Shown in pieces: positions 34,145 through 47,499 of a DNA stretch of 64,000 nt. Numbering within the stretch: position 1 is the first letter of the stretch; each line of letters begins with the position of its first letter. Below the pieces are notes generated by a model. The model was not told the DNA's origin. It ran no database searches and saw only the letters and a list, made by a program, of their open reading frames with translations. Made by a program: the position numbers and the translations under genes. Source of the DNA: Myxococcota bacterium. GTDB taxonomy: Bacteria; Myxococcota_A; Polyangia; Nannocystales; Nannocystaceae. The stretch is taken from assembly GCA_039028615.1 (NCBI GenBank), contig JBCCHT010000006.1:1-64000 (forward strand). The letters are read 5' to 3'.

Positions 34145-35103
34145 CGAGGGTGCACGGTCCACGGCGGCTCCTTCGTCTCTTCTACGACCGGCCATGGGTC
34201 ACAGGGTCGACGGCTGATGCGCTGATAGTAGTGCCGCTCGACGAAGTACAGGACCTTGCACAGCCGCAGCGCGAACTCGAAGACCTGCCACGCCATGCGC
34301 TCTCGGGCCGGAGCCGAAGCCAGCAAGTCGGGTCTTCGACGGCCGTGTCGGCGGTGGACCGCGCGGGTCTCGGGGAAGAGCCGATCGAGGCGCTCGAGCT
34401 CCATCCGCATGCGTCGGTAGTAGCGATACATCCCGACGAAGGTCTCGGGGGCCCGAAACCAGATCTGGCCGCGACTCGTCTCGACGATCGAGCCCAGGCC
34501 GTGGTCTCGCACGATCACTCGGCTGAGGTAGATGTCGTCGATGCGCATGCCCGCCGCGTAGTCGTAGAAGCGATCGTCGGGCAGCGCCTCTGCACGGGCC
34601 TTCATCTGTCGCACGCTGGGCATCTCGTAGCGACGAATCGCGAAGAGCTTGCCCGAAAACCATGTGCGCTGAGACGAGTGACCACGACGCAGGTTGTACA
34701 GATGAAGGGCGTGGGCCAGCACGGTGCGTCGGCGCGGTGGCACGGGCACCTTGGGCGGCATCGCGACCTGGAGGCTCGGATCGCGCAGCATCGCCTCGCA
34801 CAGGGCAGTCACCGTGTCGGGCTCCACACGGAGGTCGGCATCGGAGAACAGCACGAAGGGCCCGGGTCGAACGCCGCGCAGCTGGGCGGAGACCTTGCCG
34901 CCCGTGCTCGTCACCACCGGCCAGCCGCAGGAACGAGCGATACCCACGGTGTCGTCGCGGCAGTCGTCCGCCACGACCAGGCGGTCGAACGCGAGGCCCA
35001 GCTCCGCGGTCGCGTGCTCGCACGCCTGCGACAGCGACTCGAGGCACCGGGCCAGGGCTCGCGCCTCGTTCTTGGCCACCACGGTGATGGGGATGGTGGT
35101 CAC
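34141..35103 (-). CDS. GT2-family glycosyltransferase
   Basis: VVAKNEA, VVADDCRDDT, FSDAD (DXD), IDDIYLS. Confidence 0.85.
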   Translation of the reverse strand: MTTIPITVVAKNEARALARCLESLSQACEHATAELGLAFDRLVVADDCRDDTVGIARSCGWPVVTSTGGKVSAQLRGVRPGPFVLFSDADLRVEPDTVTALCEAMLRDPSLQVAMPPKVPVPPRRRTVLAHALHLYNLRRGHSSQRTWFSGKLFAIRRYEMPSVRQMKARAEALPDDRFYDYAAGMRIDDIYLSRVIVRDHGLGSIVETSRGQIWFRAPETFVGMYRYYRRMRMELERLDRLFPETRAVHRRHGRRRPDLLASAPARERMAWQVFEFALRLCKVLYFVERHYYQRISRRPCDPWPVVEETKEPPWTVHPR

Positions 35104-36278
35104 CTCATCGCCTCCTCGGCGAGGTCGGCCGCACCTCGGCTGCCGTCCTGGGCGCGGTAGCTGTCGGCGATGCGCTGCGATGCGTCGCGATGAGGGCCGG
35201 GTCCAGCGAGGCGCGCCAAGGCTTCACCGATGAGCTCGACCGACGCGGTCTCGAGGTCGATGCCCTGCCCTGCCCCGCAATGCTCGACCATGGCCAGGTT
35301 GTGGGGCTGATCGTTGCAGATCGGCGCGAGCAACAGCGGCACGCCTGCCGCCAACGACTCCATCACCGAGTTGGCGCCACCGTGGGTGACGATGACGTCC
35401 GCCTGCTCGAGCACCGCCAGCTGGTCGACATCCGCCTCGCAGCGAATCGTAGGCGGCAACCCGCGGGCTCGAAACTCGGCGTCCAGGTCACCCATGCTGG
35501 CGATCATCGCCAGGCCGCGCCGGGTGGCGGCGGCGATGATGCGTTCGAAACGCTCGGGCTGGTACCAGGCCTGGCTCCCGAAGCTCGCGTAGGCCAGCCG
35601 CCGTGAACCTCGGTCGGGAATCTCGGGCCGTACGCCCGTGCGGTCTCCGCCCCGCGAAGGCCCCACCAATCGAATCGTGGGATCGGCGGGTGCGGAGGCC
35701 ACCGCGGAGGTGGTGAACACCGCGGTGCCGTGGGGCGACAGCACGTCGCTGACCCGAAACCGTGCCTCGAGCCCATGTCGCTCGAACAACGCATGACGCA
35801 TGGGGTCGAGCGCCTCGAGCGTCTCGATCAACGTGCTGCGCGTCGTGTCCGGCACCACCGGGTTGAGCGAGGTCGACCACCCCACCCAGGGCACGCCCTC
35901 CCGCTCGGCTGCGATCGCGGCGGCGTAGACCATCGAGTCGATGGCCACCACGCCCGGCTTCACCCGGCGGATCATCTCCCGGAACGGCTCGACCAGCTCG
36001 GCTTGAGCGTCGATGAGCATGGCCCGAATCCACCCCGCCAGGGCGGCCGGATCGGTGAGCAACTCGGTCAGCGCCTTGCCCCGCAGCGCCGCGTCGGGGG
36101 GCGGAGCATCGGGCGGCAACGCGACCTGCTTCACCCCCGCCGCTCGTAGCTCCGACCGGATGTCCGCCGGCGTGCCCCATACGACCTCGAAGCCGCGGCG
36201 CTCCAGCTCCAGCGCAGGCCCGAGCAACGGGTGGTAGTGACCGCGCTCGGGGATGGTGAACACCATCGCGCGCTTCAT
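35100..36278 (-). CDS. GT1 (MGT/UGT-like) glycosyltransferase
   Basis: PERGHYHP, YASFGS, DQLAVL...THGGANSVMESL...DQ; ATGA overlap with asnB. Confidence 0.9.
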   Translation of the reverse strand: MKRAMVFTIPERGHYHPLLGPALELERRGFEVVWGTPADIRSELRAAGVKQVALPPDAPPPDAALRGKALTELLTDPAALAGWIRAMLIDAQAELVEPFREMIRRVKPGVVAIDSMVYAAAIAAEREGVPWVGWSTSLNPVVPDTTRSTLIETLEALDPMRHALFERHGLEARFRVSDVLSPHGTAVFTTSAVASAPADPTIRLVGPSRGGDRTGVRPEIPDRGSRRLAYASFGSQAWYQPERFERIIAAATRRGLAMIASMGDLDAEFRARGLPPTIRCEADVDQLAVLEQADVIVTHGGANSVMESLAAGVPLLLAPICNDQPHNLAMVEHCGAGQGIDLETASVELIGEALARLAGPGPHRDASQRIADSYRAQDGSRGAADLAEEAMR

Positions 36279-38023
36279 GGCGCCGCGACTCCGTAGGCCT
36301 CCGCCCACCGCTGGAGGCAGGCGACCCGGAACATCGCAGCCCGACGCGGCTCGTCGAGCGGTGCCGGCTCTCGAAGCCGCGAGAGATCGACCACCGCCTC
36401 CACGAGGGGATGAGGCGCCTGCGCCAGCTCGTGGATGAGCCCCTGGTAGATGCGACCGACGTCTTGGTCCTTGGGCAGGGCGGACTTGCGACGGACGCGA
36501 ATGGGCTCGGGTACCCATCCACGGACCGCCTCGCGCAGCACCGTCTTCTCGACTCCTTCGGCCAGGGCGCGCGTCGGCTCGATCGCCTGGGCACAGGCCA
36601 GCACCGCGTTGGCGGCAAAGGGCACGCGCGGCTCGACCCCGAAGGCCATGCAGTGCACGTCGCCGTTGTGCAACAGTCGAGGGAGCCACCGCTCCACCAC
36701 CAGCCGCGTGGTCGCGGCCACCCGCGAGGCAGGATCAGAGAAGCGCTCGCCCTGTCGTTCGAGTCGTTCACGGTAGCGACGGTCGAGCGTCTCCAGCGGG
36801 TCCGCGTCGACCTCGGGACGAATCGCCACGGCACCCAGCCGCTCGAGGATGTTCCTTGGGCGGCGAGTCGCGACGTCGTCGAGCAGGAAGTGATAGCCGT
36901 AGTGCGTCTCGTCGGCCGCGTCGCCGACCAAGATCCCTTTGAGACCGCGCTGGGCCGCGGCCTTCGCCAACGTGCGCTGCGACAGCTCTTGCTCCCAGGC
37001 GGGCAGAGCATCGTTGCTGCGCACCAGCCCTCGGAGCTCGGCGTCCATGGTGGTGCGCTCGAAGGGTACGAAGTACGCCTCGAGCTCGAGCTCCCGGGCG
37101 GCCATCCGGGCGAAGGGCGTGTCGTCGGAGACCACGATCGCCGAGTCGCGGCTCGTCCAGCGCTCCTGGCCGTCGAAGGCCACCGTCAGCGCCACCAGGT
37201 CGGGCACCTGCGCCCGCGCTCGGGCGGCGATGAGCGTGGAATCCAGGCCTCCGCTCAAAAAAACGCCCAAGGGAGCATCGGCGATGCACGCCGCCCCGAT
37301 GGCATCGTGCAGCGCCTCACCGAGCTCCGACGCGCCGACCGCGGGATCGGCCCCCGGAGACCACCGCCAATACGCCAGTTGCGTGATGCCGTCTCGGCTC
37401 ACCTGCAGCCGATGTCCCGGGGGCAGAATCTCGAGCCCCTCGAACATCGCCCGCTCCACCCCGCTGAACGCAGGTGCGACCAGATACTCCACGATGGCCT
37501 CGAGGTCGGCCCGCACCGCGCCCGTCCCCGGACCCAACAGAGCCTTGGCCTCGGACGCAAAGCTCAGACCATTGGGCGTGCGGCGAAAGACGAAGGGCTT
37601 GACCCCGAGGCGATCGCGAACACCATGGCCCTCGCCGCGCTGCGCGTCCCAGAGGAAGAACGAGAACATGCCGTCGAGGTGATGCGGCGTCTGGGTGCCC
37701 CAGCGGGCCCACGCCGCGAGCACCGTCTCCGCATCGCAGCGGCTCCGCCACGGACCGCCCAGCTGCGCCCGCAGCTCGGCGTCGTTGTACAGCTCTCCGT
37801 TGTAGATCAGGTGATAGCGACCATCGGGGCTCACCAGCGGCTGCTGTCCCCCGGACACGTCGACCATGGCCAGACGGGTGTGCGCCAGGGCAGCGTGCTC
37901 CACGAACACCGAGCCTTCACCGTCGGGGCCGCGATGACGCAGCTGAGCCTGCATCCACTCGAGCCCTGCGCGCGAAGCCTCGGAGGATCGATCGAAGTCG
38001 ATGATGCCCGCGATGCCGCACAT
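36275..38023 (-). CDS. asnB: Asparagine synthase (glutamine-hydrolysing)-like amidotransferase
   Basis: MCGIAG Ntn Cys, HRGPDG, YNGELYN, RDRLGVKP, LSGGLDS, GDAADE, EPRVPF. Confidence 0.9.
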   Translation of the reverse strand: MCGIAGIIDFDRSSEASRAGLEWMQAQLRHRGPDGEGSVFVEHAALAHTRLAMVDVSGGQQPLVSPDGRYHLIYNGELYNDAELRAQLGGPWRSRCDAETVLAAWARWGTQTPHHLDGMFSFFLWDAQRGEGHGVRDRLGVKPFVFRRTPNGLSFASEAKALLGPGTGAVRADLEAIVEYLVAPAFSGVERAMFEGLEILPPGHRLQVSRDGITQLAYWRWSPGADPAVGASELGEALHDAIGAACIADAPLGVFLSGGLDSTLIAARARAQVPDLVALTVAFDGQERWTSRDSAIVVSDDTPFARMAARELELEAYFVPFERTTMDAELRGLVRSNDALPAWEQELSQRTLAKAAAQRGLKGILVGDAADETHYGYHFLLDDVATRRPRNILERLGAVAIRPEVDADPLETLDRRYRERLERQGERFSDPASRVAATTRLVVERWLPRLLHNGDVHCMAFGVEPRVPFAANAVLACAQAIEPTRALAEGVEKTVLREAVRGWVPEPIRVRRKSALPKDQDVGRIYQGLIHELAQAPHPLVEAVVDLSRLREPAPLDEPRRAAMFRVACLQRWAEAYGVAAP

Positions 38024-39060
38024 CAGCCGCGACCCCGGAGCACGTCCATCAACATGTGCAGGGTGGACCACTGCACCCGTCGTCGAGTGGTATCCAGCGA
38101 CAGCGGCCGACCCAGCTCCCCCGCCAGCCCCTCCAGCTCGTGGCGCGGCAGGGGAAGCGCCGAGGCGTCGCAGGGAAGCATACGCGGGACCTTGGGGCCC
38201 GAGGTCAGCCACCGGGGTGCGCCCCGCTGCGCCAGATAGTCTCGCACCCACGCCTTGTCCGGGTCGGGACCGCGGTGGAGCCACGAGCCCAGGACCTGGT
38301 CGTCGAAGAACGGGGATCGAAGCCCGAGGCCTGCCGCATCGGTCAGCGCCGCCACGATCGGAATGTAATCATAGTCGGGTCGGCCTCGAAAGACGGCGTC
38401 GGCTCCGTCCCCCGTCACCACCACGTCGTGTCCACGGCGGGCGAGGTCTCGGGCCAGCAACCATCGCCCCACCGGGTGCAGGCCATAGAGCGGCGTCTCG
38501 ATGCATGTGATGACCGAGCCCAGCTGCTCCACCAGCTCGCGGGGGTTCACCGTCACGCGCGCGAGCGGGACCTCCAGCCAATCGCAGATCGACTGCGCGG
38601 CGTCGACCTCGTCGTAGCGGTCGATACCCGTCTCGAGGGTCACCACCGTGGGTGCAGTACCCAGCTGCCTCCGCCACGCGACCAAGACCGCCGCGGCATC
38701 GAGCCCGCCGCCCAGGGCGAGGACGGGCGAGCGCGAAGACTGGGCGATGGCCGCGACCGCGTGTTCGAAGCTCACCGAGGGCTCGACGGCTTCAGCCGCC
38801 GCAGGCCCGGGCACGGCGACGCGCTCGATCCCCTGCACCACCGTGCGACGGTGACCGGTCGGGGAGAGTCCCCACGCTTCGTCGACGCCTCTCGGGTCGA
38901 GCTGCGAGTCCGAGCCGGTCAGGGCCGACAACCGCGAAGCCCGGGCCCCATCGGCGACCCGCAGGTAGGACCAGCCGATCCCGTGCCAGGCCCGCGCGCC
39001 CTCGGGCTCGACCCGGCGAGCGAGTCGCGTTGCGCAGAGCCCCTGCCGTGATGCCGACAC
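38023..39060 (-). CDS. Asparagine-synthase C-terminal-domain protein (ATP-dependent amide ligase-like, no glutaminase domain)
   Basis: ALGGGLDA, TGDGADAVF, RSPFFD; GTG start inferred; TGATG coupling to asnB. Confidence 0.75.
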   Translation of the reverse strand: MSASRQGLCATRLARRVEPEGARAWHGIGWSYLRVADGARASRLSALTGSDSQLDPRGVDEAWGLSPTGHRRTVVQGIERVAVPGPAAAEAVEPSVSFEHAVAAIAQSSRSPVLALGGGLDAAAVLVAWRRQLGTAPTVVTLETGIDRYDEVDAAQSICDWLEVPLARVTVNPRELVEQLGSVITCIETPLYGLHPVGRWLLARDLARRGHDVVVTGDGADAVFRGRPDYDYIPIVAALTDAAGLGLRSPFFDDQVLGSWLHRGPDPDKAWVRDYLAQRGAPRWLTSGPKVPRMLPCDASALPLPRHELEGLAGELGRPLSLDTTRRRVQWSTLHMLMDVLRGRG

Positions 39061-39074
39061 GTTCGCGCGGCATT

Positions 39075-39851
39075 CTAGCCTCTCGTGGTCACCGGCTGAA
39101 CGTAGTGGCGAATGATGCCGACCTCGGGATGGCGCGCGATGTACTTCGCGGCCGCTGGCGCCCATCCCCGGACCCCCAACACCAGCGTCCCTCGGCCTGC
39201 GCTCACGACTCGGTACGGGAGCTGCGCCCGATCGAAGTCCTGCCGGATGCAGCCCCACACGACGTCCCAGGCTTCGCTCGACGAGAAGTACGGGTCGGCG
39301 AAATCGACGGCGATCATCGCCGACTCGTCGGTCACCGTCTCGCTGATCTTCGCTTCGGGCGGAGCGAGTTCGATGGACTCGACCATCCCGCGCAGCTCGT
39401 CGAGCCTCTTGGGCGAGAAGGAGACGATGGAGTGGCGCTCGTCGATCACGACGAGTTCTTGGGCCTCGTACGCATACATACGGAAACCGAGGTTGCCGGA
39501 GCCGAGGTCGTGCGTCACGAGGTAGGACAGCTGCGTGTCTTCATCGATGGGAATGGGAAGACCGTCGGGGCCCACCGCGATCGTCGACGTTCGAAGCCGC
39601 TCGTGATCGGGCGGATCGCGATCGAGGAAGTCGTCCTCCTCGTACTCGTCGTCGTACTCCTCCTCGTCTTCTTCGTCCTCGGGCTCCGGCTCTTCGGGCA
39701 CTCGCTCCTGTTCGAGCTTGGGAGTCTCGACCTCGGCAAACGTTGGTCCGGAGGCTCCGGGGACCTCGGTCGCATTGCGCTCGCAGGCCACGGCACTGAC
39801 ACAAAGCGAGCCCAGGAGGGCGAGTACGGCATTCGAGCGCATGTCGTTCAA
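39075..39851 (-). CDS. Hypothetical lipoprotein with acidic tract
   Basis: AVAC lipobox; EDEEDEEEYDDEYEEDD; 14 bp upstream of the AsnB-like cluster. Confidence 0.7.
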   Translation of the reverse strand: MNDMRSNAVLALLGSLCVSAVACERNATEVPGASGPTFAEVETPKLEQERVPEEPEPEDEEDEEEYDDEYEEDDFLDRDPPDHERLRTSTIAVGPDGLPIPIDEDTQLSYLVTHDLGSGNLGFRMYAYEAQELVVIDERHSIVSFSPKRLDELRGMVESIELAPPEAKISETVTDESAMIAVDFADPYFSSSEAWDVVWGCIRQDFDRAQLPYRVVSAGRGTLVLGVRGWAPAAAKYIARHPEVGIIRHYVQPVTTRG

Positions 39852-40184
39852 CTCTCGATCACGCGAACGTGCGGCGAGCCGAATCGAGCTACGCCCGGCA
39901 ACACTCGCGGTGGGTCACGCAGCCCCCAACGCATCGAGACGCGTCGTCGACATACCGCAATGTCGGTCGCTCGCGTCACCGAAGGCCGTTCTTCGGGCTC
40001 GATCCATACGGGCGAACACGACCAACTTCGACAGCCCTGATTCGGAAATTTTCGAGGCCCGTAGGCCGGGTTGCGGACACTCGTCGACGTCCGAAAAATT
40101 GTCGGGACGGCATCGATTTCGTTGTCGCCTGCCGTATTGGATCCATGTTAGTCAATCAACCCGACAACCACTCATAGGGGGGTC

Positions 40185-41690
40185 ATGGCTAGGTTCAATG
40201 CGCTGTACATCCTGCCCTCGGGGTCAGGTGAATATCACGCGAATCGCTATCGCGTTTACTTCCGGCCCAACCAACAGGGCATGACGGTCGCCGATCTCAA
40301 CAACGAGTTCATGCGGTCGTTCACGTCCATCTTCAATGGCAGTGTCTCCGGTGGCACGACCAATGTGGCCGAAGTGACGCGACGTGGCGACCTGAGCTGG
40401 GAGGGTGAAGCCCCGCTGCAGTTCACGCTGGATGCCGTGTTCGCGGACGCCATCGATGTCCCCGACGTCCGTGACGACTGGGTGGGCATCACGTGGAAGG
40501 AAGCAGGCCGAGGCTTCGCCGCGCAGACCCTCCAGCTCGAGCAGAGCACGGGCCGTCAGGTGGGCGTCGCCGTCATGGGAATCACCCTGGGCGGCCTGCT
40601 CGGGGGCATCCCCGGGGCGGTGCTGGGTACCTTGGTCCTCGACGAAGCCGACGAAGAGCTGATGCTCTCGCACTTCCTCGCGGGTCGACGCTCGTGGGTC
40701 ATCGGCGATGCCTACGACGACGCGGCCGGGGAGTACCTCGAAGAGCCCCCCACCGCCCACGGCCAAGTCTTCTACCTCGAGACGGGTGCCGTCGAGCGCT
40801 TCTCGACCTGGTTTTACCACGTGTGGCCCACGGCCACGCTCGCGGGCCTCATGGCGCCGGGCGGAGACATGCGCTCCGCCATCGACATCGTGTGGAAGAA
40901 CCTCCTCGAGAACTATCTCGACTTCAAGGGCAGCAGCATCTCGGTGGTGCCCACCAGCCAGATCAACCTCACCGCCCCCTCGCCCGACTGGGTGCCGCTG
41001 GGCAGTGAAGGGGTGGTCCATACCTGGGAGTCGTTCGACGGGTGGCGAGACGTTCGGAACAAGGCGTGGACGGCCGAGATGCTCGACCTGCACCCCGGCC
41101 TCGAGATGCAGTTCCCGCGCCCGGTCCAGGCTCCCGTCGATGCCGCGCTGTGCTGGAGCCGCGGTCGTACCTACTTCTTCAAGGGCTCCCGGTACTGGCG
41201 GTACGACCTCAACAACGACCATACCGACTGGAACTACCCCAAGAGCATCTCGCGGCACTGGCCGGGCCTGCCCGACGACCTCGACGCCGCCATCGATTGG
41301 GATAACGGCAAGACCTACTTCTTCAAGGGCAGCCAGTACTGGCGCTGGACCAAGGACGAGGGCCTGGACAGCGGGTACCCCAAGTTGATCGCCGACGAGT
41401 GGCCGGGGATTCCCAACGACATCGACGCGATCTTCGATCACAACGATGGTCGCGTGTACTTCTTCAAGGGCAACCAGTACTGGCGCTGGACCAAGGGCTC
41501 CGAGAGCGCCGACAGTGGGTACCCCAAGTTGATCGCCGACGAGTGGCCCAGCGGGCTCCCCTCGATCGATGCCGGCATCCGTACCGGGCTGCACCGAGTC
41601 TACGCATTCGCGGGCGACCGCTACTGGCGTTGGGACATCGACGACGAGCTCGACAGCGGATACCCCAAGAACATCCGAGACCACTGGTAG
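40185..41690 (+). CDS. Hemopexin-repeat protein with uncharacterised N-terminal domain containing a glycine zipper
   Basis: Four repeats of DAA...YFFKG.QYWR...SGYPK.I...W; GITLGGLLGGIPGAVLG; no signal peptide. Confidence 0.88.
   Translation: MARFNALYILPSGSGEYHANRYRVYFRPNQQGMTVADLNNEFMRSFTSIFNGSVSGGTTNVAEVTRRGDLSWEGEAPLQFTLDAVFADAIDVPDVRDDWVGITWKEAGRGFAAQTLQLEQSTGRQVGVAVMGITLGGLLGGIPGAVLGTLVLDEADEELMLSHFLAGRRSWVIGDAYDDAAGEYLEEPPTAHGQVFYLETGAVERFSTWFYHVWPTATLAGLMAPGGDMRSAIDIVWKNLLENYLDFKGSSISVVPTSQINLTAPSPDWVPLGSEGVVHTWESFDGWRDVRNKAWTAEMLDLHPGLEMQFPRPVQAPVDAALCWSRGRTYFFKGSRYWRYDLNNDHTDWNYPKSISRHWPGLPDDLDAAIDWDNGKTYFFKGSQYWRWTKDEGLDSGYPKLIADEWPGIPNDIDAIFDHNDGRVYFFKGNQYWRWTKGSESADSGYPKLIADEWPSGLPSIDAGIRTGLHRVYAFAGDRYWRWDIDDELDSGYPKNIRDHW
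41316..41548 (+). repeat. Near-identical intragenic duplication (141-bp period) of hemopexin blades 2 and 3
   Basis: tacttcttcaagggc(ag/aa)ccagtactggcgctggaccaagg and gggtaccccaagttgatcgccgacgagtggcc each occur twice. Confidence 0.85.
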
Positions 41691-41766
41691 CGGCCGCTGA
41701 CGCGCTCCGACCCGCACTCTCTCTTCGACTTCCCAACGCGATCGTCATGACGCGACCGAGGCCACG

Positions 41767-44301
<2,535 letters not shown>

Positions 44302-44316
44302 CTGGAGTATCAGTCC

Positions 44317-46266
44317 ATGTCCCGCGACAAGACCAACGAAGCCGTTCGGTTCTTCCTCGACGAGTGGGTAACCGCCGAGCAGCGCCAAGCCCTCGTGGAC
44401 AGCCCCCACACCCTGTATCAGTGGGGGGTCTACTCGAAATACACCGGGGGTCCCATCGATGCGGTGGCCGGCCGTCGGCTCACGCCCAACTTCCACCTGC
44501 GGCTGTCCCGTGACCCCATCCCCCGGCAAGCCGGGTTCCCGGTCACGGCCGACGCGACCTTGGGCGTCGACCCCGTCAGCACCCCGCTGTTCTTCGTGCG
44601 GCGCGTGGCCGACCCGATCCAAGACTCCGAAGAGGAGATCCGCCAGACCCTCCTGAGCGGGCTCTTCCACGGCTCGCTGGCGGCCCAGCGCAGCGAAGAG
44701 TGGGCGGCTCAGGCCGCGGCGGCCATCCACGGCGCCGCCTCGTCGGGCACGCTGTCCCAGAACGTATTCACCCACACCGCGGTCCCCGACGGGCTCGAGG
44801 TCTTGGGCGATCGCGATCAGTTCTTCGAGCTGATGACCAACTGGTTCACCTTCACCTGGGAAGGCAACTACTACTCGCGGTGGGAGAGCGGCTCTACCGG
44901 CACCAGCGCCGATGAGCTCACCAGCGACTATCTCGACCGCAACCTGCTCGAGGTCCAGCTGCGCGACGACTGTGCCTACGCGCGCATCGTGGCCCCCCAG
45001 CACTGGTTTTTGGGCACCGCGCGCCCCGCCACGGTCGCCTTCCGAGAGGTCTACCTCCAGTTCTCGTTCGAGGGCGACCGCATCGACCACGTCGAGATCG
45101 TGCACAGCGTGGGCGTCGACGTCCCCGGCAACACGGCCGACTACTACGACATCTCGTTCTTCTACGCCGAGGACGGCTTCGTGCCGCCCCATACCCGCGA
45201 GCTGACCCCAGTCACCACCTACGTCTCGGGCTTCGTGGTGGGGCACGCGAGCCCGCGCTGGGATCATCATCGCCGCGACGAAGACCCCCAGCAGCTCAAC
45301 CTCGCCCTGTCGCGTCGCCGTGCCGACCACGTGTCGGCCATGCTGCAAGAGCTGATCAACGCGGCGGGGCACGGGGACACGCTCGTCTGCGACCTCGTCA
45401 ACGCCTGCTACATCCCTCCCGTGGGCAGCGATGGTGACGAGACCTCGGGGATGGCCCTCGTCGCGCTCGGAGACCAGGTCACGCGCGTCGAGGCGGGCGG
45501 CGACGAGAATGCCGACGCCGAGTCGATGCGTCGGGCCGAGATCTCGGTGGTCGTGACCCATCAGGTCGCGACCCAGCAGACGCTCGACTACACCGAGACG
45601 GTTCGCTACCGCATTCCCGAGGAGTGCGAGCCCAACGAGACGCGCCGTTGGGCGGTGGCGATCTCGGTGTCGGGCGGAGCGGGCCATGCCGGAATCGGCG
45701 GAGCCTTCGCCTTGGGCAAGCTCAAAAACCGCCTCACCGGCCAAACCGCGCAAGGGGCCTTCACCGGGGGCGGCCCCGGCATCGGCCTGGCCTCGCCGGG
45801 GGCCGACCCGGGCTGGGGCGACTGGACGAACTTCACCACCGCCTACGGCTGCACCTTCGAGGACTTCGACGTCACCGACGCGGTCCTCATCTCCGCCAGC
45901 GTCGGCATCGCGATCTTCGGGGTGTCCGTGGCCTGGCTCGGGTTCCCGACTCTGGGGGTGTCACCGATGTGGATCGGCGACTTCAACATGGGCACCTTCG
46001 GCGCGGACGCGGGGGTCAACTGGGGTGCCTGGAACGTCATCGGCGATCCGCCGGGCCCCCGCTGTTCACCCGAGCGCTGGGAGTCCCGCGAAGAGTCGCG
46101 CCAGATCCAAAGCCCCTTCCGCCTCGAGGGCACCGAGCAGCTCACGCTGACCGTCACCTTCGATACCGGCGAAGACGAGCTGGCCGGCGACCAGCAAGAG
46201 GCGCTGCAGAACTTCGCTCAGCAGATCGTCGCCGCGTATCAGCAGGGCCAAGCCCTCGCACAGTAG
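44317..46266 (+). CDS. Hypothetical protein with circularly permuted OmpA-like domain and Gly-rich insert
   Basis: VVGHASPRW, NLALSRRRADHV, ALGD, RRAEISV, with TFDTGEDEL...ALQNFAQQI at the extreme C-terminus; GGAG SD. Confidence 0.8.
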   Translation: MSRDKTNEAVRFFLDEWVTAEQRQALVDSPHTLYQWGVYSKYTGGPIDAVAGRRLTPNFHLRLSRDPIPRQAGFPVTADATLGVDPVSTPLFFVRRVADPIQDSEEEIRQTLLSGLFHGSLAAQRSEEWAAQAAAAIHGAASSGTLSQNVFTHTAVPDGLEVLGDRDQFFELMTNWFTFTWEGNYYSRWESGSTGTSADELTSDYLDRNLLEVQLRDDCAYARIVAPQHWFLGTARPATVAFREVYLQFSFEGDRIDHVEIVHSVGVDVPGNTADYYDISFFYAEDGFVPPHTRELTPVTTYVSGFVVGHASPRWDHHRRDEDPQQLNLALSRRRADHVSAMLQELINAAGHGDTLVCDLVNACYIPPVGSDGDETSGMALVALGDQVTRVEAGGDENADAESMRRAEISVVVTHQVATQQTLDYTETVRYRIPEECEPNETRRWAVAISVSGGAGHAGIGGAFALGKLKNRLTGQTAQGAFTGGGPGIGLASPGADPGWGDWTNFTTAYGCTFEDFDVTDAVLISASVGIAIFGVSVAWLGFPTLGVSPMWIGDFNMGTFGADAGVNWGAWNVIGDPPGPRCSPERWESREESRQIQSPFRLEGTEQLTLTVTFDTGEDELAGDQQEALQNFAQQIVAAYQQGQALAQ

Positions 46267-46284: not shown

Positions 46285-47499
46285 TCAGCGGCTCATACGG
46301 CCGGCCGCGACCTCGTCCCTCGTCAGCTGATGATGGGGCAAGGTCGGGCCGTCGCCGCCGCGACAGTAGTGGCACGCCCCGAGCGGCTCGCTGCGGTTGA
46401 GGTAGCGCTCGAGTCGCTCGGCCAGGTCCTCGGACTCGAGGTCGACCCCGTCGTCGCCTCGGACCACCTCGACGCCGGCCGGGACCGGCTCGTGCTCGAC
46501 GCGGGCGAGGAAGTCGGGCGCATAGGCGGCGCGGGTACACATGTAGAAGCGACCGTCCCGCACGATGAGGCAGCGATGCCGCAGCCAACACCGCTCGAAG
46601 GTGGTCGCCGCGGTCTCCTCGTCCACGAAGCGAGGCGACAGCACCTGGCTGAACTCCTGGACCTCTTTGATGTTGAGGACGAAGCCGTGCTCCCGCGACC
46701 GCTGGCGCGCCAGCTCGAGCAACGCGGGGCGAACCGGAGCGCTGACGTAGTTGGAGATGGTCATCTCGTCGAGCGCGGGCCAAAACGCGTCGGGCATCGC
46801 CTTGAGGCGCAGGCCATTGGTGAACAGCCGCACCCGGTCCGCCACCCCCGAGCGCCGCAGGACCCCGATGATCTCCACGATCTCGGGGTGCAGCAGCGGC
46901 TCGCCTCCCATGATCTTGATGACGTCGGCGTGGAGGACCGACCGCATGCGCTCGCAGATCGCCTCGACCTCGGCGACCCCGAGGCTGTGCCGCGCCACGA
47001 AGGGCGACATGTTGCAGCAGTTGGCGCAGCGCAGGTTGCAGTGCTCGGCGATGTGGATCTCGAACGCCTCGACCCGCACGCGGCCCTGCTCGTCCCGCAC
47101 GTAGCGCTGACGATCCGGGGAAAAGCCGGCGCGCGGTCGGATGCCCGCCGCCAGCGTCATCGGCCCCGGTCCGCGGAGCACCGTGAGCGTGCACGTCGAG
47201 CCCAGGCGTCGACGGAGCCAGGCTTCGATGGCATCGCCGTCCGCCTCGGGGGCGACACGCACCGCGAACACGGCCGTGTCCTCGAGTCGATAGCCCTCGT
47301 CGCGGCCGAGCCGTCGCACCGCCTCGCGGGCGCTTTGCCGTCGCAGCTGTTCGAAGGCCGCGTCGAGCGAGTCCAGGCCGGAGCCCTCCGCGGCCACGGC
47401 CACCAGCAGGTCCGGTTCGTCCCCGGGACCGAGCGCGCTGGTGGTCTCGCCCGCCTCACATGCAGCCACAACACGCTCGGACACGGACGGGCTCACCAT
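46285..47499 (-). CDS. Radical SAM protein with N-terminal extra domain
   Basis: CNLRCANC, MGGEPLLHP, FTNG, C-terminal Cys cluster; AAGGAG SD before MVSPSV. Confidence 0.88.
   Translation of the reverse strand: MVSPSVSERVVAACEAGETTSALGPGDEPDLLVAVAAEGSGLDSLDAAFEQLRRQSAREAVRRLGRDEGYRLEDTAVFAVRVAPEADGDAIEAWLRRRLGSTCTLTVLRGPGPMTLAAGIRPRAGFSPDRQRYVRDEQGRVRVEAFEIHIAEHCNLRCANCCNMSPFVARHSLGVAEVEAICERMRSVLHADVIKIMGGEPLLHPEIVEIIGVLRRSGVADRVRLFTNGLRLKAMPDAFWPALDEMTISNYVSAPVRPALLELARQRSREHGFVLNIKEVQEFSQVLSPRFVDEETAATTFERCWLRHRCLIVRDGRFYMCTRAAYAPDFLARVEHEPVPAGVEVVRGDDGVDLESEDLAERLERYLNRSEPLGACHYCRGGDGPTLPHHQLTRDEVAAGRMSR

Follow-up and report, generated by a model that had tools for sequence, protein, structure and literature searches.

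The 64,000-nucleotide stretch analysed here, referred to below as the window, has 68% GC, lies on contig C6 of the 12.3-Mb genome G000 and carries a cassette of three co-oriented genes, which we call genes 1, 2 and 3 (Table 1). The spacing of these genes (76 bp between genes 1 and 2, and 15 bp between genes 2 and 3) is as described in an earlier note on this DNA, and so is the AT-richer region in front of them: the sequence between gene 1 and the divergent lipoprotein-like gene has 60% GC as compared to 68% in the window, and only 3.5% of 333-bp windows are equally low. A promoter scan of this region revealed no sigma-70-like site and nothing exceeding chance. The GC content at third codon positions of the three open reading frames (ORFs), 0.87–0.90, is that expected for genuine genes of G000. 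None of the three proteins has an obvious signal peptide, as the note had also claimed; by a hydropathy heuristic, the top 12-residue Kyte-Doolittle mean within the first 40 residues was 0.69–0.74, and hence no hydrophobic N-terminus was found. The main subjects of this analysis are the family of gene 2, which appeared to be present as arrays of many paralogs in several phyla, and the N-terminal domain of gene 3 (g3N), which accompanies one clade of this family.

Table 1. Coordinates of the cassette, its domains and the short paralogs of gene 2 (positions of the window, except for the last row)
Feature	Coordinates	Strand	Comment
Lipoprotein-like gene, divergent from gene 1	39075..39851	-	ORF without Pfam match over cut-off; within the block interrupting the flanking operon
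Intergenic region, lipoprotein-like gene to gene 1	39852..40184	none	Lower GC; likely promoter region
Gene 1, 501 aa	40185..41690	+	Unassigned N-domain and four hemopexin repeats
Gene 2, 844 aa	41767..44301	+	Cargo-linked subunit of a many-paralog family
Gene 2 N-domain, residues 1-445	41767..43101	+	In the model, Ig-like core, long out-and-back beta-ribbon, alpha/beta tip
Gene 2 residues 194-226	42346..42444	+	Candidate membrane-inserting hairpin; amphipathic, conserved hydrophobic tip 209-213
Gene 2 low-complexity loop, residues 293-380	42643..42906	+	Predicted local distance difference test (pLDDT) <50
Gene 2 beta-sandwiches, residues 449-844	43111..44298	+	Four, FN3/Ig-like; predicted model and structure matches
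Gene 3, 649 aa	44317..46266	+	Conserved N-domain g3N and exchangeable cargo
g3N, gene 3 residues 1-~295	44317..45201	+	Unassigned; proposed loading/docking domain
Gene 3 cargo, residues 301-642	45217..46242	+	Circularly permuted OmpA-like domain; Gly-rich hydrophobic insert at ~443-577
Short paralogs of gene 2	L001:9226-9948, L020:14154-14900, L024:15741-16430, L032:12768-13619		230-280 aa

Gene 2 did not map to any characterised family, as it has no match in Pfam, NCBIfam, PHROG or PADLOC. A profile built from gene 2 together with 69 homologs retrieved 2,415 family representatives at E <=0.001 from a library clustered at 50% identity. The only source annotation encountered among them was 'hypothetical protein', and none of 59 diverse members matched a Pfam family over cut-off. 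No PDB sequence matched the family profiles with E <0.08, indicating that there is no solved relative. A phage origin was considered and rejected, since searches of phage records and viral contigs yielded no member of the family. The genome G000 itself encodes about 20 paralogs, of which 19 are ORFs matching the family profile and one is divergent (its subfamily aligns to the family with 96% probability). Ten of them form a core cluster of 28 kb on another contig (C4:105729-133291, L037-L039), arranged in three oppositely oriented blocks, and the remaining ones occur as singles or a pair on C2, C3, C4, C6, C14, C20, C30 and C35; the paralogs outside the cluster include those at C4:97673, C4:272377-277530, C2:561732, C20:47048 and C3:437279. 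The short paralogs consist of the N-domain core and a Ser/Thr-rich ribbon, without the tip subdomain or the sandwiches.

Arrays of the family were found in records labelled Acidobacteriota, Chloroflexota, Armatimonadota, Actinomycetota, Cyanobacteria, Planctomycetota, Verrucomicrobiota, Pseudomonadota and Myxococcota (the phylum names behind some of these labels are presumed), and thus similar arrays are present in both diderm and monoderm lineages. In a tree of 162 sequences (177 matches minus 15 dropped for short alignment), the paralogs formed more than 12 mostly well-supported subfamilies that crossed phyla, and the arrays of other phyla had one gene per ancient subfamily. No member of nine arrays had its nearest relative within its own array (0/48), and the corresponding figures were 0/9 for G014, 0/8 for G026, 2/14 for G004 and 4/18 for G000. 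As no array member is nearest to its own array, the arrays represent sets of old, distinct subunits rather than recent duplications. The presence of the family is patchy, mostly many-or-none: it was found in 4/36 genomes of the same taxonomic family (13–21 matches in three of them and just one partial match in the fourth), in 0/24 genomes of other families of the class, and in at least 9 of 401 genomes of the phylum sample, G000 included. This pattern is not strictly all-or-none, because G108 and G447, which are among the positives of the phylum sample, hold one or two genes only, one of them broken. Three plasmids also carry the family.

The four beta-sandwich-like repeats noticed earlier in gene 2 were recovered in the predicted model and in structure matches as FN3/Ig-like domains. 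A structure search with the full-length model gave only FN3/Ig matches, which include pilins, adhesins and macroglobulin domains, so that all recognisable structure is Ig/FN3-like. The folds of MACPF/CDC, gasdermin, aerolysin, protective antigen and SPFH were absent among the matches listed for the N-domain, and no pore-former Pfam family scored over cut-off in gene 2 or its 59 relatives. For gene 2, Atlas returned only clusters without a name, and for gene 3 it gave OmpA leads below 0.9. The tip of the candidate hairpin in the N-domain is hydrophobic in 141/147 aligned rows, with beta-periodicity across residues 201–217; the segment 194–226 is a hairpin in one AlphaFold2 (AF2) model and two helices in the other. 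According to profile-profile comparisons, the loop corresponding to residues 293–380 carries an inserted OmpA-like domain in some paralogs, including one core subfamily. The predominance of Ig-like domains, together with the pilin, adhesin and macroglobulin matches and with the fact that hydrolases are the majority of the partners described below, would suit a non-penetrating surface or extracellular scaffold (an Ig-like fibre, cage or adhesin) on which digestive enzymes and binders would be presented, in the service of feeding or predation, with no pore being made. We regard such a scaffold as rather improbable, since the conserved exposed hydrophobic tip with its beta-periodicity, the peptidoglycan-binding-type insert at the ribbon tip, and the cargo in common with injection systems fit envelope penetration better.

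Gene 3, which has no Pfam or NCBIfam match over cut-off, is the partner that appeared to follow gene 2. The similarity of its N-terminus to that of gene 2, claimed in the earlier note, could not be reproduced (best BLASTP E 0.13; profile-profile probabilities of 0.05% and 0.14%), and the idea that genes 2 and 3 are paralogs was rejected on the same values. Instead, a g3N gene comes directly after a member of gene 2's clade in 27/30 non-redundant loci, once across a small gene. This is a hand count in which loci >=90% identical were merged, those with no downstream room or a truncated gene were excluded, and clades were assigned from the tree and an N-terminal motif. In a sister clade, the next gene encodes a phospholipase D in 8/12 loci (hand count), and the same is true for a Paracoccus plasmid. 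The neighbourhood survey of gene 2 homologs that had been recommended with the first description of the locus revealed both recurrent paralog arrays and variable effector-like neighbours. The gene 2 type subunit is present four times in G000, each copy with a g3N gene adjoining or nearby, and the genome has five g3N genes altogether.

The C-terminal parts of g3N proteins vary. In one Pfam scan, all were subtilases (13/13 proteins), and the catalytic motifs were intact in 11/12 of those checked. Other C-termini in G000 are a peptidoglycan-binding domain with a subtilase (C35) and an M74 murein endopeptidase (C14); in G004, g3N is fused to Amidase_2, and unassigned C-terminal domains also occur. 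Stand-alone g3N was found in G014, in G026 and on C30 of G000. The combination of a single N-domain with several unrelated C-termini is as in polymorphic toxins. At nine subtilase-type loci, of which some are close kin, the product of an adjacent small gene resembles the propeptide of the subtilase itself (64% probability, E 7e-5); the gene may encode a subtilase inhibitor and is a plausible immunity gene. A Tae4-family amidase with a peptidoglycan-binding domain is encoded inside the family cluster of G026 (L064:19217-19957).

The cargo of gene 3 itself is an unusual OmpA-like domain. The match to the OmpA family (PF00691) was below the Pfam cut-off (E 0.084; 13.7 bits vs 27.2), and profile-profile comparison with the OmpA domains of G000 supported both parts of it (92% for residues 303–345 and 84% for residues 612–638). 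The OmpA-like domain reported in the note is thus real, although its halves are swapped around the insert and its score is under the Pfam threshold. Since GHAS replaces GHTD and the aspartate is lost, peptidoglycan binding by this cargo is uncertain. Three proteins that start with eCIS_core, a domain of extracellular contractile injection systems (eCIS), have C-halves 42–45% identical to this cargo. The same payload has been joined to two unrelated N-domains, as the module sits behind both g3N and eCIS_core.

Several further arrangements of g3N and family genes were observed. On C30 of G000 (C30:38711-41831, L042), a gene 2 type paralog, a divergent gene for a PLAT-repeat metallopeptidase and a stand-alone 229-aa g3N lie together, none with an obvious signal peptide. 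On C8 (C8:272381-275460, L043), an orphan g3N gene of 391 aa overlaps a 636-aa gene without Pfam match, and no family paralog is nearby. A third partner type stands beside a family gene at L030:7840-9378 and L132:18222-19985; the two proteins are homologous (26% identity, E 8e-32), have no Pfam match, and are possibly cysteine proteases, judging from a conserved GTCVPTS motif. The phospholipase-type arrays (L018, L020, L021, L032, L106, L131) end in a gene of 640–740 aa, the N-part of which resembles squalene-hopene cyclase (Pfam E 2.5e-12 in L020) and the C-part of which is unassigned, and on the Paracoccus plasmid this gene is followed by tyrosinase and trypsin; it possibly has a lipid-modifying or immunity function. 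At L131:8020-12907 (NZ_CP102356.1), a trio of genes for trypsin, EAD1 and an ATP-binding protein lies immediately upstream of a complete array.

Partners of these types could also act inside the producer. In intracellular defence or programmed death, the subtilase or phospholipase D would be the trigger or executioner, and the paralogs would form a pore in the cell's own membrane upon infection. The absence of signal peptides, the patchy distribution, the intact catalytic motifs of protease and phospholipase D partners, and the position of the Paracoccus plasmid array immediately after a trypsin/EAD1/ATP-binding trio are in line with this. Nevertheless, we consider it rather improbable, as the family has no PADLOC match, EAD1 is a neighbour in one locus only, and the peptidoglycan hydrolases, the hemopexin and the cargo of eCIS type suggest action beyond the cytoplasm.

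The location at which the family acts bears on a further possibility. None of the 185 nearest family members has a hydrophobic N-terminus by the same heuristic. However, distant members in G359 and G271 (clusters L137-L140), which have fewer sandwiches, carry signal-peptide-like N-termini, indicating that the fold can operate outside the cytoplasm; these clusters are a possible Sec-exported sister system. The lack of signal peptides in the 185 members, the core subunit with an OmpA-like insert, the wall hydrolases and peptidoglycan-binding domains among the partners and the hydrophobic tip would all fit a machine of the producer's own envelope, assembled in the cytoplasm, inserted into the inner membrane, anchored on its own peptidoglycan via the OmpA-like insert, and serving g3N export or local wall opening, hence a channel for secretion or exit and not a weapon that is released. 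Such a machine seems unlikely to us, because the arrays inspected showed no recognisable ATPase or conventional membrane protein among their conserved members, because arrays are alike in diderm and monoderm lineages, and because of the distant members with signal-peptide-like N-termini.

Gene 1 has a looser relation to the family. Its C-terminal part matched Pfam Hemopexin (PF00045) in four stretches over cut-off (E 3e-55; 184 bits), in agreement with the four-bladed propeller proposed earlier, while the glycine-zipper domain proposed with it proved to be just a short Gly-rich hydrophobic stretch of about 25 aa (residues 126–152), which is variable or missing among homologs and lies inside the conserved N-domain. 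This N-domain (residues 1–312, ~300 aa) has a conserved HFLAGRRSW motif and no family match; a distant relation to DUF1990, suggested by a likeness of motifs, was rejected as unsupported (profile probability 0.07% against 20 natural DUF1990 sequences). A protein search found 11 homologs of it, of which ten are stand-alone and a single one is a full ortholog that includes hemopexin. Among 400 genomes of the phylum, it occurs in two, G152 and G014. In G152, where the gene 2 family was not found, the homolog lies between VgrG-like genes of an RHS island, and in G014 it is 0.4 Mb away from the gene 2 type gene; around 32 genome loci and in relatives' clusters of the gene 2 system it was not found. 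Hemopexin genes flank three actinobacterial arrays of the gene 2 family, at least two of these being close kin. Gene 1 is probably an effector and probably a second payload of the assembly proposed below, and it could equally be cargo of G000's type VI secretion system (T6SS) or eCIS.

The cassette might also be a chance grouping, in which gene 2 would have no relation to genes 1 and 3, the latter being orphan cargo of the T6SS or eCIS of G000. Matches in this genome number seven for VgrG type, three for sheath and four for eCIS_core, and the position of gene 1 homologs in a VgrG/RHS island and far from the system in G014 agrees with such an origin. For gene 3, the 27/30 linkage of g3N to gene 2's clade excludes chance, and G004 and G014 hold g3N genes without an eCIS_core match. 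As an account of the whole cassette, chance grouping is therefore barely credible; for gene 1 alone, it is about even.

The block 39075-46266, which comprises the cassette and the divergent lipoprotein-like gene, splits an operon of radical-SAM, asparagine-synthase-like and glycosyltransferase genes on the minus strand (35100-39258 and 46285-47439). The same operon is uninterrupted in the same-genus genome G001, the sole informative region among four fetched, and thus the cassette looks like an insertion. At the start of the contig (376-8775, minus strand), there are two tandem ORFs of ~1,400 aa each. One DNA run containing the stretch, which may be the source run, covered all 30 bins with no differences listed (its three joints, supported by 21 letters, were disregarded), and no RNA runs containing the stretch were listed.

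We compared these genes with known delivery systems. VgrG genes of T6SS are multi-copy, scattered from the core cluster, and paired with various cargo in VgrG islands. The gene 2 type subunit is likewise multi-copy, scattered off the core cluster and paired with differing cargo, and the cargo types overlap (amidases, phospholipase D, peptidases). In contrast to T6SS, genes 1–3 and the 59 family members gave no VgrG, Hcp, PAAR, sheath or membrane-complex match, the core consists of paralogs of one unrelated family, and the VgrG-type genes of G000 are on contigs other than C6. As in eCIS, a conserved N-domain heads variable C-termini, the same module occurs behind both headers, and signal peptides are absent. 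However, g3N and gene 3 have no match to eCIS_core (DUF4157), no tube, sheath or baseplate genes were found in the arrays inspected, and the cassette has no eCIS structural gene (tube, sheath, baseplate or spike), the sheath matches of G000 being on C9, C15 and C19; PHROG gave no match at E <0.001, and phage or viral relatives were not found. The note's statement that T6SS and eCIS hallmarks are lacking holds for the structural genes of the cassette; however, the gene 3 cargo is common to eCIS_core proteins, and a gene 1 homolog lies in a VgrG/RHS island. According to Geller et al. (PMC8213781), DUF4157 occupies the N-terminus of proteins that have toxin domains at the C-terminus, and hemopexin, enriched in eCIS, is among the domains predicted as eCIS effectors.

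Purely by analogy, the family would recall the complement membrane attack complex (MAC) or two-component CDC-like toxins (PMC11169675): its subunits are paralogs that would have distinct roles, one segment may switch from helix to hairpin, a protease is linked, and the context would be antibacterial. Unlike those, the family has no MACPF/CDC match in sequence and none among the listed structural matches, counts 7 to ~20 paralogs instead of two, has four Ig-like domains, and uses separate cargo. The umbrella toxin particles of Streptomyces (PMC11062931) are comparable, by analogy, in being multi-protein antibacterial particles with a polymorphic toxin and exchangeable partners, and differ in that they are built on a repeat-containing toxin (UmbC) with lectin-tipped spokes, whereas no such scaffold is present here and the family spans many phyla. 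Repeat or lectin families did not surface in general Pfam scans, in which no Umb profile was searched directly. Both halves of the OmpA/MotB-like domain (PF00691) are recognisable in the gene 3 cargo as well as in the loop insert of the core subfamily; the gene 3 version differs by its circular permutation, the Gly-rich insert and the GHAS motif. A PADLOC 2.0 scan of 9 proteins gave nothing beyond a weak ZorB/MotB-type match (E 0.015).

The reading that we prefer, and to which we give roughly an even chance, is that the family builds a hetero-oligomeric, probably membrane-penetrating delivery assembly, in which a core array is complemented by satellite adaptor-cargo cassettes such as the one in the window. 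A ring or particle would arise as the paralogs join in a set order, the long beta-ribbons lying next to each other and the sandwiches forming arms. Cargo bearing g3N would be docked by the gene 2 type subunit, much as an effector is by VgrG. The assembly is proposed to exit the cell without Sec, through lysis or vesicles, and to bind the target envelope, upon which the hydrophobic hairpins would insert, and the OmpA-like loop insert of one core subunit would grip peptidoglycan. The target would most likely be another bacterium, whose wall, membrane or proteins the cargo would then act upon. This agrees with the earlier notion of a modular scaffold with payload lacking signal peptides, as far as the many-paralog subunit and g3N with its interchangeable C-termini are concerned. 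It departs from the notion of a three-gene complex, since the unit extends to a core of ~10 paralogs on another contig, genes 2 and 3 are not paralogs, and gene 1 stands beside the system at no other locus examined.

Several points weigh against this delivery assembly. Assembly, docking, release and membrane insertion are steps that we infer, whereas the genomic ones were observed. The N-domain of gene 2 matched no pore-forming protein among the matches listed, its core resembles an ordinary Ig-like sandwich, and the contrast between hairpin and helices in the two AF2 models may reflect merely different alignments. The 27/30 loci are not independent, because they were gathered with one motif and include kin; moreover, no g3N gene adjoins the clade member in 3/30, and in some actinobacterial arrays the gene 2 type subunit is not followed by a cargo gene. 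Three of the four g3N genes of G004 and one of the five of G000 are distant from any gene 2 paralog, and G204, in which the gene 2 family was not found, gave a weak match to g3N (E 8e-10). As subtilase dominates the C-termini of g3N proteins, it could be a maturation protease instead of cargo. Finally, the cassette of the window shows no evident immunity gene. A stronger form of the proposal is tentative and, in our view, doubtful. It would make the family a new class of bacterial nanomachine for protein delivery, unrelated to phage tails, in which 7 to ~20 paralogs, ordered as in complement, form a beta-barrel pore or needle anchored on peptidoglycan and deliver interchangeable enzymes through an adaptor subunit and g3N, patchily distributed over many phyla and with a Sec-exported sister version.

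The family is apparently undescribed: a literature search on it and its partners, done by word matching with few subscription papers, found no title or abstract describing it, although comparative-genomics tables could mention it. Thousands of clusters, multi-paralog arrays across phyla and an own pool of exchangeable cargo have thus remained without an entry in the four libraries scanned. The main claims are directly testable, because there are cultured carriers, namely Paracoccus sp. SMMA_5 and Pararhizobium qamdonense with their plasmids, Nannocystis pusilla, and Leptolyngbya sp. If the family indeed forms a delivery machine, a class of weapon would be added beside T6SS, eCIS, Tc and umbrella particles, and, as one module is found behind both g3N and the eCIS core domain, cargo would have been swapped between unrelated machines.

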